NCBI GenBank assembly: GCA_965217775.1
Contig: CBDCJH010000002.1
Location: forward strand, 6,048,001-6,112,000
DNA: 64,000 bases
Direction: 5' to 3'
Origin: Acidobacteriota bacterium
GTDB lineage: Bacteria > Acidobacteriota > UBA6911 > RPQK01 > JAJDTT01
Made by a program: the position numbers and the translations under genes. The notes under the pieces are model-generated. The model saw only the letters and a program-made list of their open reading frames with translations, did no database searches and was not told where the DNA came from. Every line of letters starts with the position of its first letter. Positions within the stretch are counted from its first letter, which is position 1. Positions 24,985 to 63,403 of this stretch are shown here, piece by piece.

Positions 24985-25042
24985 GGGGGGACTACGGTCC
25001 CCCCTGACCCCCCCTATTCGGCGACAAGAAAGTCGCCGCTCC
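24985..25042. repeat. Composite REP-like element
   Basis: ggggactacggtcccc + ggcgacaagaaagtcgccgctcc; similar unit at 40527-40581. Confidence 0.7.
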
Positions 25043-36745: not shown

Positions 36746-38332
36746 TTATTCCGGCGCGGCCTCCTTGGTGTGGGTGTAAAGCACTTTGCCCTTTTCATCG
36801 TAGAAGGTGAAATCCATGCGGGCCCGCCCCTCGCCGGTTTGGCCGATCTTCATGATCAGGAAACCGCCGGTGGGTTCCTCGAAGTGATAGGGATGTTTGA
36901 TTTTTCCTTCGGGGTCCGACGATTTGGGATCGCCGGGAAAGAAGCCCAGAATCGCGTTGGAATCGTCGATAGCGCCGACGGAGAATTCCTGGAAGCCGGA
37001 GGGGTGGACGGCATGATACTGCCAGTGCCGATCTCCGCAGACGATCATGAAGCGTTCCGGTGAGAAACGTTCGGCCGTCAGCCAGCGGAAAAACTCGTCG
37101 CCTTCGGTTTGAAATCCTCCCGGGTTGACGTGGTTGTCGCGTTTGGCGGCGTAGTCGGGTCCCACCATGGGTGTCGCGGAGAATAGAACCTTGAAGGTGG
37201 CGTCGCTTTCCAGCAAGGTCCGTTTGAGCCACTCCTTCTGCTTTTTCCCCCAGATCGTCTTCCGGGGACCGTCGGGAAAGTCGTTGGGGCTGCGGTAGTC
37301 GCGTCCCTCCACGATCCAGATCTGCAGGTCCCGGTTCACTCTTCGCGTGGAGTAGGTCACCGTTTCGGACGCCCGTAGATCGACGACCGGAAGCTGTTCC
37401 CGGAACATCCGCACCCCCAATTCAGGGGAGGGAGCGTGGCCGGAACCGGAGTGTTTCGGGAAGAGGTTCTCCTTGGGATAGTTTCCGGTATTCGACCCGT
37501 CATAGATATGGATGCGGACCGGATTGACCGGATCTGAGTCGTTGAACCGGTAGTCGTGATCGTCCTTCAACCAATAGGTGGCCACTCGGGCGAACAGATC
37601 CGGGAACCTCTGCTGCGAGAACTGCTCGTGGTACTTCATCCGCAACTGGTGCTGCGTCTCCGCCCGTCCTCTCATGTCTTGGTCGGCTCCGGGGACGTCG
37701 TAGTAGACGTTGTCACCCAAACCCACGAAGAAGTCGGGCTCCAAGGCCAGGATGGAAGCCAGCCCCGGGTAGCCCAATGCCTTGTCCGGTCCGCTGTAGG
37801 GAGGGTGGCCACCGTGCCCGGTGTAATGGAAATAGGTGTAGTTCATGCAGGCGGCGAGGGCGAAGCTGTAGGAGACCTGTCCCGTGGGTCCGCCCAACGT
37901 GGTGAAGGTCGCGGCGGTCGATTTCTTGAGCCGAGACTTGTCCGGCCCGTAGACCAGGCGATAGTGGTAGCGGGTCTCAGGCCGCAGCCCTTCCACCTTG
38001 ACCTTCACGATGTAATCGTTCTCCGGGAGGGCGGCGAGCCACGCGGTCCGGATCGGGTTCTTGAAGTCGGCGCCGGTCGCCACCTCGAACCGGGAGATTC
38101 CCTCGATCCCCAAGACGCCCGACCAGCGGTTGTCGACGAGGCGCTCGGTCGAGGTGAGGCGGGACTGGAGAATCGCCGAAGCGTCGCCCACAGAGCCTGC
38201 CATCAGGCCGTGGCCCAGTTCCACGGGAAAGGGGTCCTGGGATTGGGAAAAGCCCGAGTTCCCGAGGGCCAGGAACAGAACCAATGCGGGGATCCGCCTC
38301 CGACAGGACCGTCGGGTGATCGTGGTGGTCAT
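36746..38332 (-). CDS. phoD: Alkaline phosphatase D family protein, paralogue 1
   Basis: Same motifs; signal peptide; GGAGGAG RBS. Confidence 0.85.
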   Translation of the reverse strand: MTTTITRRSCRRRIPALVLFLALGNSGFSQSQDPFPVELGHGLMAGSVGDASAILQSRLTSTERLVDNRWSGVLGIEGISRFEVATGADFKNPIRTAWLAALPENDYIVKVKVEGLRPETRYHYRLVYGPDKSRLKKSTAATFTTLGGPTGQVSYSFALAACMNYTYFHYTGHGGHPPYSGPDKALGYPGLASILALEPDFFVGLGDNVYYDVPGADQDMRGRAETQHQLRMKYHEQFSQQRFPDLFARVATYWLKDDHDYRFNDSDPVNPVRIHIYDGSNTGNYPKENLFPKHSGSGHAPSPELGVRMFREQLPVVDLRASETVTYSTRRVNRDLQIWIVEGRDYRSPNDFPDGPRKTIWGKKQKEWLKRTLLESDATFKVLFSATPMVGPDYAAKRDNHVNPGGFQTEGDEFFRWLTAERFSPERFMIVCGDRHWQYHAVHPSGFQEFSVGAIDDSNAILGFFPGDPKSSDPEGKIKHPYHFEEPTGGFLIMKIGQTGEGRARMDFTFYDEKGKVLYTHTKEAAPE

Positions 38333-38386
38333 GATCTCCTCCAAGTCCCGGCATCATATCCGATTTGGGGTGCCGGGAGGGGCGAC

Positions 38387-38482
38387 GTGGAGGGGGGACA
38401 TTCTTGTCCCCCACTGGGAGGCGACTTTCCTGTCGCCCATTGGGAAGGGCGACTTTCCTGTCGCCCACTGGGACAGGCGACT
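38387..38482 (+). repeat. Tandem REP-like palindrome array (GGCGACTTTCCTGTCGCC), left part
   Basis: 26-28 bp period; the fourth unit is split by the intron. Confidence 0.85.
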
Positions 38483-40399
38483 GTGCGCCAGGCTAACTGG
38501 CACAAGATAGGCGGTGGAAGTCCGCCGAAACGAAGGACTAACCATCCACGTTTCTCCGCGAGCCGTGCGTGGGCACCCGTGAGGGTGTCGGCGAAGCGTC
38601 GGTAGCGGTGCGTATGGGCAGGCTATTGAGCATCGAAAGCTCCCTGATCGGAAGTGCCGAGGCTGTAGTCGCGGTCGAAGGCAACACCGGCTGGACCGCC
38701 CAGGTGAGGGCCGGCCGGGCTCCGCGGTGTCAAAGAACCCAGGCACGTACGCAAATCTTGTTCCGGGACCTGGGAGGGCTTCATTTCACGCCGGGGGGTC
38801 GCCCCGGGGTCGCATGAGAAAGGAGTAACCCGAAACTCATGATGGACGGAACGAAGCAATCGGATTCATCCATAGTAGCGATGAAGCGGGCGAACAAAGA
38901 GGGGCGACCCTCGGCGGAGCCGGTGGAGCGAAGGGATGGAACCAAGGGGAATTCGGTGAGCCAAAGCACGCGCCGGACGCAGAGTCGGGGGAGCGTGTCC
39001 CAAGCGGTGGACCGGATACGGCGAGCGATCGCGAGAAACCCCAAGGAGCGACTGACCGCGCTGCTGCACCATATCACTGTGGAGGCCCTGCGCCGCGCCT
39101 ACCTCGGACTGAGGAAGGATGCTGCGCCGGGAATCGATGGGGTCCGGTGGGAGGAGTACGGGGCGAAGCTGGAAGAGCGACTGCTGGACCTGCATCGCCG
39201 CGTGCACCGGGGCGCGTACCGAGCGCCTCCCGTCCGGCGGGTGAACATCCCCAAGCCGGATGGAAGGACACGACCGCTCGGCGTGGCCGCGCTGGAGGAC
39301 AAGATCCTCCAGAAGGCAGTCGTGGACGAGCTCCTAACGCCGATTTACGAGGCGGAGTTTCTCGGGCTCAGCTACGGGTTCCGGCCCGGACGGAAGGCGC
39401 ATGACGCGCTGGATGCACTGGCCTACGGGATCGAACGGCGGAAAGTCAATTGGATCGTGGACGCGGACATTCGGACGTTCTTTGATGCGATCGACCGGGA
39501 CTGCCTGATGCAGTTCGTGGAACGGCGGATCGGAGACCGGCGGGTGCTGCGGCTGCTGCGCAAGTGGCTGAACGCCGGGGTGATGGAAGAAGGGACCTGG
39601 TCGGACTCGGGGAGAGGGACGCCTCAGGGCGCCAACGTCTCGCCGGTCATGGCCAACGTGTACCTGCACTACGTGCTGGACCAATGGTTCCATCGGACGT
39701 GGCGCCCACGAGTCCCGAAAGGCGAAGCGATCCTGGTGCGATATGCGGACGACTTCGTGGCCGGATTCCAGAGACGGGCGGACGCGAAACGGTTTCTCCG
39801 AGACCTGGGGGAACGGTGCGCCGAGTTCGGGCTGGAACTGCACCCGGAAAAGACGCGACTGGTGGAGTTCGGACGATTTGCGGCAGCGGATCGGCGACGA
39901 CGCGGGGAGCGGAAACCGGAGACGTTCGACTTTCTGGGGTTCACGCACTACTGTGCGAAGACCCGGAAGGGACGGTTCCGGCTGGGGCGGAAGCCAAGCG
40001 CGAAACGGATGAACCGGACCCTGCAACGGGTGGGGGAGAGGCTGTGGAGACAACGGCACGCGGATCACTGGGAGGTCGGGAAATGGTTGAGCCGGGTCCT
40101 GAACGGCTGGCTGAACTATTTTGCGGTTCCGGGGAGTACGCGCTGGCTGCGAGGTTTCTGCTATCTGCTGCAACGGCGGTGGCTGCGAGCCTTGCGCCGC
40201 CGGTCCCAACGCGACCGCTTCAGTTGGGGACGGTTGCGACGGATGACGGAGTTGCTCTGGCCATCCGTGAAGATCCGTCACCCGTGGCCGGGGCAGCGGT
40301 TCCGCTGGCCGTCCACACCCAAGGTAGGAGCCGGATGCCTTAACGGGCACGTCCGGATCTGTGCGGGGGGCGGCAGGAAACTGCCGTTCCTACCGTGAC
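38483..40399 (+). mobile_element. Group II intron, complete
   Basis: 5' GTGCG; domain V GAGCCGGATGC..GCACGTCCGGATC; domain VI ending CCTACCGTGAC; removing it restores GGCGACT|TTCCTGTCGCCC. Confidence 0.92.
38839..40398 (+). CDS. ltrA: Group II intron reverse transcriptase/maturase, no En domain evident
   Basis: IPKPDG.TRPLG, GFRPGR, GTPQG, RYADD, FDFLGF. Confidence 0.95.
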   Translation: MMDGTKQSDSSIVAMKRANKEGRPSAEPVERRDGTKGNSVSQSTRRTQSRGSVSQAVDRIRRAIARNPKERLTALLHHITVEALRRAYLGLRKDAAPGIDGVRWEEYGAKLEERLLDLHRRVHRGAYRAPPVRRVNIPKPDGRTRPLGVAALEDKILQKAVVDELLTPIYEAEFLGLSYGFRPGRKAHDALDALAYGIERRKVNWIVDADIRTFFDAIDRDCLMQFVERRIGDRRVLRLLRKWLNAGVMEEGTWSDSGRGTPQGANVSPVMANVYLHYVLDQWFHRTWRPRVPKGEAILVRYADDFVAGFQRRADAKRFLRDLGERCAEFGLELHPEKTRLVEFGRFAAADRRRRGERKPETFDFLGFTHYCAKTRKGRFRLGRKPSAKRMNRTLQRVGERLWRQRHADHWEVGKWLSRVLNGWLNYFAVPGSTRWLRGFCYLLQRRWLRALRRRSQRDRFSWGRLRRMTELLWPSVKIRHPWPGQRFRWPSTPKVGAGCLNGHVRICAGGGRKLPFLP

Positions 40400-40466
40400 T
40401 TCCTGTCGCCCATTGGAGGGGCGACTTTCTTGTCGCCCACTGGGACAGGCGACTTTCTTGTCGCCT
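40400..40466 (+). repeat. REP-like palindrome array, right part
   Basis: ttcctgtcgccc, then two further units. Confidence 0.85.
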
Positions 40467-40647
40467 GCTCTTCCATGCTGCTATACGATTCCGCGGCCCG
40501 AAAGTGTTGAGGGGGAAAGTGTAAGGTGGGGACTCCGTCCCCCCAAGACCCCCCTGTCGGCGACAAGAAAGTCGTCGCTCCAGACTTGCTATACTCGCGG
40601 GCCGAATCGATTCATACGATTAAACGCCGCCCGTGGAGAGCGAACGC

Positions 40648-41406
40648 ATGTTGGATCTGAAAGACAGGACCGCCCTGATGGTGGGGACGAAGCGGGTGGG
40701 CGGCATCGTGGCACGCCGCTTGGCCCAAGCGGGCGTTCGCCTGGCGCTCAGCTACCGGGGTTCCAAGCTTGAGGCCCAGCACCTCCAGGCGGAGTTGGAG
40801 CCGATGACGCGGACCTGCCTGGTCCAGGCCGACGTGAGCCGGCCGGAGGACGTCGTCCGCCTGCTGCAAACGGTCCGCGAGGAACTCGGGGACCTCTCCT
40901 TTCTCGTCAACCTGGCCTCGGGATTTCCGCGGGCTCCCTTGGATTCGTTGGATGCTTCCGCTTGGGAAGCGGCGGAGCCGGCGGCCCGGGCCAACTATCT
41001 CCTGGCGGTCCACGCCTCCCGCAGCATGCGGCGGAACCGGGGACCGACCCGGGGCCACCTGATCTTCTTCAGCGACTGGGCCGCCGGCGGGACTCCCTAT
41101 CGGAACTACCTTCCCTACCTCACCTCCAAGGCGTCTATCGACTTCATGACCCGCGCCTTCGCCGTCGAATTGGCCCCGCACGGCATTCTGGTCAACGCCA
41201 TCGCCCCCGGGCCCACCATGCGTCCACCGGAAATCAGCAGCGAGGACTGGGAGAGATCCGTGATCGCCCGGACGCCCCTCCGGCGGGAGTCCGCCGCCGG
41301 AGAGATCGCCGAGATGATCGTCACCCTCCTCAAGAGCGAGACCATCACGGGCGAGACCATCCGGGTCGATGCCGGCCGCCACCTGGCGGGTCCGGGCGTG
41401 GATTGA
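40648..41406 (+). CDS. SDR oxidoreductase, pteridine reductase-like
   Basis: GTKRVG, SDWA, YLTSK, VNAIAPG. Confidence 0.8.
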   Translation: MLDLKDRTALMVGTKRVGGIVARRLAQAGVRLALSYRGSKLEAQHLQAELEPMTRTCLVQADVSRPEDVVRLLQTVREELGDLSFLVNLASGFPRAPLDSLDASAWEAAEPAARANYLLAVHASRSMRRNRGPTRGHLIFFSDWAAGGTPYRNYLPYLTSKASIDFMTRAFAVELAPHGILVNAIAPGPTMRPPEISSEDWERSVIARTPLRRESAAGEIAEMIVTLLKSETITGETIRVDAGRHLAGPGVD

Positions 41407-61092: not shown

Positions 61093-61169
<77 letters not shown>

Positions 61170-61886: not shown

Positions 61887-63310
61887 CGAAGCATCGGGCC
61901 GACGTCGTGGTCGTCGGAGCCGGACCTGGAGGTTATGCGGCCGCGTTTCGGGCGGCCGATCTGGGCCTTCAGGTGGTGATGCTGGATGCCCGGGGACGGC
62001 CCGGAGGCGTCTGTCTTCACGACGGGTGCATCCCCTCCAAGACCCTGCTCCACGTGTCGGACCTCCTGACCCGGATTCGCGAGGCGGATCGGCTGGGCAT
62101 CGAGGTCGGGGAGCCGAGGGTGAATCTGGACCGGCTCCGGTCCTGGAAACGCTCGGTCATCGACCGTCTCGCGTCCGGAGTCGCCCACCTGGCCCGCCAG
62201 CGAGGCGTGCGGATGATCTGGGGGCGAGCTCGATTCTTGAGGTCGGGCAGACTGGCGGTCAGCGGAGAGGATTCCGCGGAGATCGACTTTTCCCACGCTG
62301 TCCTGGCCACAGGCTCGCGGCCCGTGGCCTTGCCCGGAATGCCGCTCGGCAGCCCCCGCCTCTTGGACTCAACCACGGCGCTCGACCTGGAGACGATTCC
62401 CGAGAGCCTGCTGGTGATCGGCGGGGGGTACATCGGCCTGGAACTGGGGACCGTCTACGCGGCTCTGGGAAGCCGGGTCACGGTGGTGGAGATGTTGGAC
62501 GGCCTGCTTCCCGGCGTGGACCGGGATCTGGTCCGGCCTCTGGAGAAACGGATCCGGAGTCACTTTGAAGCGGTTCATCTACGAAGCCGGGTCGGGCGCG
62601 TGCGGGAAATCGAGGACGGACTGGAGGTGGAGCTGGAATTGCCGGGTGAAACGGTTACACGCCGCTTCGACCAGGTGCTGGTGGCCGTGGGCCGGCGTCC
62701 GAATTCGGAGGGACTGGGCCTGGAGAATACGGGAGTGACGGTCGACGCCCAGGGCTTCATCCGGACGGACACACAGTGCCGGACCGACGATCCGACGATC
62801 TTCGCCATCGGCGACGTGGCCGGCCAGCCCATGCTGGCTCACAAGGCCACCAGGGAGGCCAAAGTGGCCGCCGAGGTCATCGTGGGCGTGGAGTCCGGTT
62901 TCGAGCCGGAGGCGATTCCGGCCGTGGTGTTCACCGATCCCGAGGTGGCCTGGTGCGGCCTCACCGAAGCGGAAGCCAAGGCCACCGGCCAGGAGGTCCG
63001 CGTGTTGCGGTTCCCTTGGGCGGCTTCGGGCCGGGCCCTGACCATGGGGAGGTCCGAGGGCATGACCAAGCTGATTCTCGAGCCCGACTCGGGGCAGGTC
63101 CTGGGGGTGGGCATCGTGGGAGTCCACGCCGGTGAGCTCATAGCGGAGGGGGTGGCGGCCATCGAGATGGCGGCTCTGGCGGAGGATCTGACGCTCTTCA
63201 TTCATGCTCATCCCACGCTTTCGGAGACCTTGGGAGAGGCGGCGGAGTTCTTCCTGGGTCAGCCCACGCACCTGTTTCGCCGGCCGAGGAGGCGGGGGGG
63301 CGATTTCTAG
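61877..63310 (+). CDS. lpdA: Dihydrolipoyl dehydrogenase
   Basis: GAGPGGY, GGVCLHDGCIPSK, GGGYIG, HAHPTLSE. Confidence 0.95.
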   Translation: MELAKHRADVVVVGAGPGGYAAAFRAADLGLQVVMLDARGRPGGVCLHDGCIPSKTLLHVSDLLTRIREADRLGIEVGEPRVNLDRLRSWKRSVIDRLASGVAHLARQRGVRMIWGRARFLRSGRLAVSGEDSAEIDFSHAVLATGSRPVALPGMPLGSPRLLDSTTALDLETIPESLLVIGGGYIGLELGTVYAALGSRVTVVEMLDGLLPGVDRDLVRPLEKRIRSHFEAVHLRSRVGRVREIEDGLEVELELPGETVTRRFDQVLVAVGRRPNSEGLGLENTGVTVDAQGFIRTDTQCRTDDPTIFAIGDVAGQPMLAHKATREAKVAAEVIVGVESGFEPEAIPAVVFTDPEVAWCGLTEAEAKATGQEVRVLRFPWAASGRALTMGRSEGMTKLILEPDSGQVLGVGIVGVHAGELIAEGVAAIEMAALAEDLTLFIHAHPTLSETLGEAAEFFLGQPTHLFRRPRRRGGDF

Positions 63311-63403
63311 TCGCCCGGTCACCGAGTTGTTGTGGATTGGGAGGTGGGCCACTGGGCGACTAGAAATCGCCCCACCTGTTCGGCGGTTGGAAACCGCCGC
63401 TCC
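63293..63403. repeat. REP-like cluster: inverted pair plus a third-type palindrome
   Basis: gggcgatttctagtcgccc .. gggcgactagaaatcgccc .. cggcggttggaaaccgccg. Confidence 0.75.

Follow-up and report, generated by a model that had tools for sequence, protein, structure and literature searches.

REP palindromes as the probable homing site of an endonuclease-less group II intron family in an Acidobacteriota genome

Group II introns persist in bacteria by occupying harmless sites, which may be insertion sequences, terminators or attC sites and, in a few cases, the conserved ends of genes. RmInt1 of Sinorhizobium meliloti, a IIB-type, class D intron whose protein lacks an endonuclease (En-minus), homes into the insertion sequence ISRm2011-2. 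Here, we describe a 1917-nt group II intron inserted in a repetitive extragenic palindrome (REP) of an Acidobacteriota bacterium (assembly GCA_965217775.1, 6.43 Mb), within the window, that is, the whole 64,000-nt stretch analyzed, positions 6,048,001-6,112,000 of contig CBDCJH010000002.1 (C2:6048001-6112000; C2 denotes this contig, and other coordinates are window positions). Compared by description rather than by sequence, this REP intron resembles RmInt1 in encoding a reverse transcriptase (RT) and maturase without an endonuclease, in a target read by two exon-binding sites (EBS1 and EBS2), in residing in a multi-copy non-essential repeat and, as we propose, in replication-fork priming (excerpt of PMC4424553). 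It differs from RmInt1 in that its target is an 18-nt REP hairpin and not an insertion sequence, and in that its guides have diversified over REP variants within one genus.

Class IIC introns (B.h.I1, GsI-IIC, IIC-attC) offer a second parallel, being likewise En-minus, compact and tied to DNA hairpins, which in their case are terminators and attC sites, and the closest solved structures to the protein encoded here are class IIC reverse transcriptases (7uim, 6ar1). Class IIC introns, however, lack EBS2, rely on a short EBS1 and enter the DNA on the downstream side of the hairpin (excerpts of PMC3522654 and PMC4424553), whereas in the REP intron EBS1 and the covarying EBS2 are each 6 nt long, and insertion takes place within the loop 1 nt past the 5′ arm, the intron-binding site 1 (IBS1) being the hairpin's own 5′ arm. 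We therefore rejected a class IIC identity, and the class C precedent invoked in the initial annotation of this locus holds as an analogy only.

The closest plasmid-borne relative is a Klebsiella intron (e.g. NZ_CP014649.1), whose protein is 52% identical over all 519 residues, N-terminal extension included, and whose ribozyme belongs to the same family (RF02005, 186.6 bits). We infer its name to be Kl.pn.I5/Se.ma.I1, an intron carried by small K. pneumoniae plasmids according to the table excerpted from PMC6764390. Kl.pn.I5/Se.ma.I1 occupies specific intergenic sites in plasmids and chromosomes, with no free homing sites left, and, unlike the REP intron, is not described in REPs, as far as the excerpt of PMC3522654 goes; the excerpts of Leclercq 2012, Toro 2013, Nagy 2013 and Zimmerly 2015 and the PMC6764390 table give no class for its open reading frame (ORF).

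REPs are already known as a dedicated, harmless multi-copy landing site for ISPpu9, ISPpu10, ISPa11 and IS1397, a likeness to the present case. Tobes and Pareja 2006 list REP-targeting insertion sequences with 7/7, 7/7 and 6/6 copies in REPs, and, for the group II intron of P. putida KT2440, only 2/9 copies at REPs (excerpt of PMC1525189). Those insertion sequences are DNA transposons that rely on protein recognition, whereas here an RNA guide would read the REP. EcKTE56.groEL and related IIB1 introns are also a lineage specialized for one conserved genomic context, but theirs is the single-copy groEL stop codon, while the REP target comes in a few hundred copies (Gomes et al. 2025, excerpt of PMC12584367). 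We found no description of EBS-guided homing into REPs in the full-text literature, a coverage that leaves out subscription journals. The mechanism and chemistry proposed below are standard for retrohoming group II introns; novelty lies in the use of REPs as a niche and in the way the guides follow REP variants.

A group II intron within a REP array and its two guides

The intron interrupts the fourth of six tandem REP units (Table 1), beginning with GTGCGCC and ending with CCGTGAC, as read from the sequence of 38000-40900. Since the joined exon halves restore GGCGACTTTCCTGTCGCC, the 18-nt palindrome that stands intact in units 2, 3, 5 and 6, the boundary is fixed to the base, and it cannot be slid, because the bases flanking each junction differ; the exact split proposed in the initial annotation, and the recurrence of the same target in neighboring units, are thus confirmed. 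The ends fit the group II consensus (5′ GUGYG, 3′ AY), with GUGCG at 38483 and GAC closing at 40399, and are shared by 10 copies. The window holds six matches to the REP pattern against 0.01 expected from 100 shuffles, none of which reached six. As to the REPs reported elsewhere in the window, the first is exact (25020-25037), while 63296-63400 holds REPs with variant arms (GCGATT...GTCGCC and GGCGGTT...ACCGCC).

The domain I match covers the whole RF02005 model (1-225; 165.7 bits, E 5e-48, cut-off 49). The domain V-VI match falls below the RF00029 cut-off of 40 and ends exactly at the 3′ splice site, and the corresponding domains of four relatives (L024, L043, L029, L031) score 40.8-41 bits; a bulged A lies 8 nt before the intron 3′ end, as judged by eye only. 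The RT/maturase ORF matches TIGR04416 over residues 83-455 (355.6 bits, cut-off 300), with RVT_1 (120.7 bits) as its sole Pfam domain, and a search of the 519-aa protein with Pfam and NCBIfam found no endonuclease (D/En or H-N-H) after domain X. The ORF passes through domains V-VI and stops 1 nt short of the 3′ splice site, such that about 60 C-terminal residues are coded by the same RNA as these domains. As to type, what is established is the Rfam assignment (D1D4-6) and a compact build, of about 640 nt once the ORF is discounted; we describe the element as an EBS2-bearing, IIB-like compact group II intron without endonuclease and assign it to no named ORF class.

EBS1 was assigned from the RF02005 alignment to the 8-nt terminal loop GUAGUCGC of a hairpin (GCC-GA-GGCU, loop, GGUC-GAA-GGC) that precedes the conserved GAAGGCAACA. 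Its AGUCGC complements the final stretch of the 5′ exon, GCGACU, at every position (6/6 pairs), so the hexamer singled out in the initial annotation does sit in the EBS1 loop. EBS2, which that annotation had not noticed, lies in a 13-nt internal loop of the domain Id stem, and its GCUCCC complements GGGAGC at -13 to -8 of the REP consensus (6/6).

Ten distinct EBS1/IBS1 pairings were read, seven of them in six genomes of the genus and three outside the genus but within the same order. Within the genus, AGUCGC/GCGACU occurs in this genome and in relatives G002 and G006; AGUCCC/GGGACU in GGGGGAC...GTCCCCC palindromes that host six copies in G005 and one in G002; AACCCC/GGGGUU in the full-length G005 copy; AAUCGC/GCGAUU and GGUCGC/GCGACC also in G005; GGGUGC/GCACCC in an ORF-less copy of this genome (C2:3223516) and its G007 ortholog; and GGAUGC/GCAUCU in G004. 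The other three are UAAGCG/CGCUUA (G050), GCACAU/GUGUGC (G029) and GGCCCC/GGGGCC (G049), and a copy in a distant genome of the order, G055, matches at only 5/6 positions. EBS2/IBS2 comes in three covarying versions: GCUCCC/GGGAGC; CCUACG/CGUAGG, found in C2:3223516, where the flank CGUAGG-G-GCACCC fits both guides exactly; and CAUGCA/UGCAUG, found in G004 with the flank UGCAUG-G-GCAUCU. Both predicted guides thereby covary with their flanks across sublineages of the genus, the outcome of a check that the initial annotation had proposed.

We also counted GGCGRYT-type arms, with one mismatch allowed, at the intron 5′ ends of five relatives, and found them at 6 of 9 ends in G002, 1 of 1 in G003, 0 of 3 in G004, 9 of 11 in G005 and 7 of 8 in G006. 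The three misses in G002 have GGGGACT or GGGTGACT arms. In G004, the site is non-palindromic and not a REP, yet complementarity to EBS1 and EBS2 is exact; this sublineage (L043, L025) sits directly upstream of a tyrosine-recombinase (phage-integrase family) gene, and about 120 nt of upstream flank recur at two loci, one of which also has an upstream DNA methylase gene. The eight G006 copies are ORF-less, and the best match to the 519-aa window protein in that genome is only 37% identical; these copies may have been left immobile or may depend on a different protein. Two further loci are unusual in structure: at L033 (G045:C13), two intron copies adjoin in head-to-tail order, the 3′ end CTACCGCGAC running straight into GTGCGCC without an intervening exon, and at L030 (G049:C20), a related intron apparently starts with GAAAGCG and not GUGCG, despite its exact EBS1/IBS1 match (GGCCCC/GGGGCC).

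Table 1. Coordinates of the intron, its guides and REP units in the window
Feature	Position	Strand	Basis or score
Solitary REP, same family as array, exact	25020..25037	-	pattern search
REP unit 1, variant GGGGACATTCTTGTCCCC (GGGGAC/GTCCCC arms)	38394..38411	+	sequence read; variant recurs across genome
REP unit 2, intact GGCGACTTTCCTGTCGCC	38420..38437	+	pattern search
REP unit 3, intact	38448..38465	+	pattern search
IBS2 of window copy, GGGACA (family consensus GGGAGC)	38470..38475	+	
REP unit 4, 5′ half (5′ exon end), GGCGACT; last six bases GCGACT (38477-38482) = IBS1	38476..38482	+	
Group II intron, 1917 nt, GUGCG...AC	38483..40399	+	sequence read; identical boundaries in 10 copies
Ribozyme domain I core, Rfam RF02005 group-II-D1D4-6	38517..38739	+	165.7 bits
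EBS2, GCUCCC, 13-nt internal loop of domain Id stem	38639..38644	+	RF02005 structure line and covariation
EBS1, AGUCGC, terminal loop	38667..38672	+	RF02005 structure line and covariation
RT/maturase ORF, 519 aa, YADD, no endonuclease domain	38839..40398	+	TIGR04416
Domains V-VI, RF00029	40326..40399	+	37.5 bits, E 3.7e-6
REP unit 4, 3′ half (3′ exon start), TTCCTGTCGCC	40400..40410	+	sequence read
REP unit 5, intact, empty target	40420..40437	+	pattern search
REP unit 6, intact, empty target	40448..40465	+	pattern search
Inverted REP unit, 1 mismatch; makes cluster BIME-like	40559..40576	-	pattern search

Copies, targets and orientation across the genome

A DNA search of the genome recovered 16 elements: 10 full-length copies at 99-100% identity, 4 ORF-less copies (640-755 nt, about 82-87% identity), and 2 remnants, one lacking intron positions 15-770 and the other a 67-nt 5′ piece. 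The 519-aa frame is intact in 9 of the 10 full-length copies and frameshifted in one. The initial annotation had named copies in non-REP sites as the finding that would overturn its reading; instead, the main REP family hosts 14 of the 16 elements, the arm GGCG(A/G)(C/T)T preceding the intron in 9/10 full-length copies, 3/4 ORF-less copies and both remnants, always at the same position. The complementary arm follows in 13 of these 14, the 67-nt remnant having no 3′ junction, which gives an occupied palindrome of GGCG(A/G)(C/T)T|T(T)C(T/C)(T/A)G(T/C)CGCC with insertion after the same T every time. The first base after the intron is T in 13 of the 15 elements of this genome that have a 3′ junction. 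The fourth ORF-less copy (C2:3223516) lies in a second REP family that fits its own altered guides, leaving a single copy at a non-REP site: the full-length intron at C2:3929720-3931636 occupies the non-palindromic ...GGAGAUGCGGCU|G within an ORF of 475+104 codons that weakly matches DUF6797 and runs in the same sense as the intron (locus L007, C2:3928220-3933136), and splicing would restore this gene, since the exons keep frame across the intron.

The 70 nt on either side of the 10 full-length copies are dissimilar outside the REP, and two ORF-less copies about 1.2 kb apart (C2:4405417 and C2:4406623) have an identical 3′ flank. Near-identical copies with intact frames suggest that the family is still active. 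Among side observations on these copies, ORF-less C2:1903834-1904588 has its domain I broken by a 113-nt AT-rich insert resembling a miniature inverted-repeat transposable element, with terminal inverted repeats of about 20 nt, and near-identical intron sequence (window 38464-40465) occurs at high summed depth in sponge and marine metagenome and metatranscriptome contigs.

The main REP family has 229 members within three mismatches of the 18-nt core (both strands), about 150-200 REPs being empty. The GGAG(C/G) leader is conserved, whereas the stem varies in a compensatory manner (GGCGAC/GTCGCC, GGCGGC/GCCGCC, GGGGAC/GTCCCC), and the units form both tandem arrays, with 26-28 bp between neighbors, and inverted pairs. 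As short, imperfect, high-copy palindromes in tandem and inverted clusters, its members read as true REPs and bacterial interspersed mosaic elements (BIMEs). The second family, GGCACCC-CTTGT-GGGTGCC, has 35 copies genome-wide (e.g. C2:48124-48142) and is the target of the ORF-less sublineage with EBS1 GGGUGC. No convincing REP-associated tyrosine transposase was found: PF01797 (Y1_Tnp) gave three weak matches of 39, 31 and 22 bits, with no exact REP within their 1.5-kb flanks.

A census of potential targets shows how far the guides alone account for this distribution. The strict motif GGGAGC-N-GCG(A/G)CT occurs at 39 genomic sites, 5 of them occupied, and the 34 empty ones comprise 31 REP palindromes, 1 half REP and 2 non-REP sites. 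Because 31 of the 34 empty, perfectly pairing sites are REPs, base pairing alone explains the REP preference, with no need for hairpin recognition; REPs make up more than 90% of strict targets, in line with the 9/10 full-length copies found in them. Under a looser rule, with G-U pairs and a single EBS2 mismatch tolerated, the count rises to 983 sites, 155 palindromic and 828 non-palindromic.

The copies also show a bias in orientation. Cumulative GC skew is lowest at 4.95-5.0 Mb and peaks at 1.65-1.7 Mb, and dnaA lies at 5.011 Mb; with plus-strand copies at 5.17, 5.31 and 6.09 Mb and minus-strand copies at 2.16-4.69 Mb, every one of the 10 full-length copies is co-directional with the replication fork, as are 15 of the 16 elements overall. 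Since the intron sense strand is on the leading strand, the target strand was the lagging-strand template. Empty perfect REP targets, in comparison, are co-directional in 17 of 31 cases (hand count), and permissive palindromic targets in 72 of 153; at a background of 0.55, the chance of 10/10 is about 0.0025 (computed by hand). This bias, which like the ORF-less derivatives and the inverted unit at 40559-76 goes beyond the initial annotation, fits insertion at replication forks, from which En-minus introns take their primers according to the excerpt of a review (PMC4424553).

Recognition of the REP target

What is observed directly is the structure of the intron, its copies with their flanks, the guide pairings and how they covary, the census of targets and the bias in strand; that the element actually moves, by a fork-primed route and, in its ORF-less forms, in trans, is what we infer. 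With high confidence, we regard it as a living, endonuclease-less, EBS2-bearing (IIB-like, compact) intron family whose homing site is the REP palindrome. The excised intron RNA, together with its RT/maturase, would locate the DNA motif GGGAGC-N-GCGACT|T through two RNA-DNA pairings, EBS2 GCUCCC with the REP leader and EBS1 AGUCGC with the 5′ arm of the REP and the T that opens its loop, and would then reverse-splice behind that T and be copied into DNA. For want of an endonuclease in the protein, the primer would most likely come from the replication fork, and the intron would enter the template of the lagging strand, a route that would account for the co-orientation of all full-length copies with replication. 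ORF-less derivatives retain the ribozyme and guides and are presumably mobilized in trans. Presumably intergenic and present in hundreds of copies, REPs would give the intron many harmless sites. In sublineages, EBS1 and EBS2 have changed in step with REP stem variants, with the second REP family and, in the case of one genome, with a mobile element. The proposal in the initial annotation of EBS-guided homing to a multicopy REP family is in this way supported by the pairings, their covariation and the strict target census.

Several observations weigh against this account. IBS2 of the window copy (GGGACA) pairs with EBS2 at 4/6 positions only, and alignment inspection revealed no covarying EBS3/delta partner of the first 3′ exon base. 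The thermodynamic fold of 38624-38733 alone is no more stable than that of shuffled sequences (z -0.34) and pairs two bases of the EBS1 hexamer; as this stand-alone fold is uninformative, the EBS1 loop assignment rests on the covariance model and covariation. Occupancy of 5 out of 39 perfect sites means that insertion is rare or counter-selected. ORF-less C2:1903834, at 1.90 Mb, is head-on to replication if the terminus sits at the GC-skew position, and the strand bias as a whole could stem from selection for co-orientation with transcription. Finally, among the assembled metagenome and metatranscriptome contigs, none joins 38482 to 40400, as an empty site or spliced exons would. Contigs from RNA-library run X5 cover the intron and not the flanking genes, a faint hint at most, as contigs cannot show transcription. 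The joints 38372>40415, 38412>40414 and 38444>40447, considered as splicing or empty-site candidates, were rejected as repeat cross-joins, because their 23-31-nt sides lie in REP units and extra letters are present.

A further, tentative possibility, which we hold to be considerably less probable than not, is that the REPs and the intron family are co-evolving partners rather than a passive target and its parasite. REPs, single-stranded on the lagging-strand template, would then be the entry point for endonuclease-less introns; compensatory changes in REP stems would be followed by matching changes in EBS1; and several guide 'alleles', ORF-less ones included, would partition the genome's REP variants. 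If so, the genus would amount to a natural experiment in RNA-guided retargeting, and REP stem diversification would have been selected as an escape from intron insertion.

Recognition could instead begin with the hairpin, as in class IIC introns, the REP stem-loop being recognized as a DNA structure (e.g. on the single-stranded lagging-strand template) and the EBS pairings merely fine-tuning the choice. In this direction point the lack of an endonuclease, the IIC reverse transcriptases as best solved relatives (7uim, E 6e-48; 6ar1, E 2e-45), and the entry into two unrelated REP families, GGCGAC-TTTCTT-GTCGCC and GGCACCC-CTTGT-GGGTGCC, at the same relative place, the junction of 5′ arm and loop, by intron variants with wholly different EBS1 and EBS2. 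In addition, only one of the 828 loosely pairing non-palindromic sites is occupied, which also counts against EBS-guided homing, where the disuse of weak sites is an assumption. We nonetheless consider hairpin guidance unlikely: strict pairing already yields REPs at 31/34 empty sites and makes a structural term superfluous, a folded hairpin would hide IBS1, its own 5′ arm, from EBS1, and the covarying EBS2 is absent from class IIC. Non-palindromic sites are used as well, both the perfectly pairing one inside a gene of this genome and that of the G004 sublineage, with exact EBS1 and EBS2 complementarity, and no palindrome is seen in the flanks of the G050 and G029 copies (both flanks) or the G049 copy (5′ flank only).

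Passive association, in which the intron entered a REP once and was then copied along by REP spread or inter-REP recombination, might be suspected from the multi-copy, clustered nature of REPs and from the shared 3′ flank of C2:4405417 and C2:4406623, possibly a local duplication, but it is improbable in the extreme, given that extended shared flanks are not seen around the full-length copies, that copies occupy REP variants with different stems and loops while so many REPs stay empty, that boundaries are base-exact in every copy, that co-duplication cannot produce guide-flank covariation across sublineages, and that the REPs themselves lack the strand bias.

Under EBS-guided homing, REPs, so far documented as targets of DNA transposons, would become a landing site read by an RNA guide. 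The genus would also supply a natural retargeting series, with seven guide variants in six related genomes, each fitting its own flank, across two REP families, which is relevant to targetron design and to the rate at which EBS1 and EBS2 evolve. The contrast between 10/10 co-directional copies and unbiased empty targets provides an in-genome control that supports the fork-primed route of endonuclease-less introns.

Surroundings of the array

The array is flanked by a PhoD-like phosphatase gene on the minus strand and a short-chain dehydrogenase gene on the plus strand, and therefore lies in a divergent intergenic region. Between the array and the inverted REP unit, a small palindrome, GGGGACTCCGTCCCC, is found at 40520-40545. 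Farther along the window, a tRNA gene occupies 61096-61169 on the minus strand (76.4 bits).

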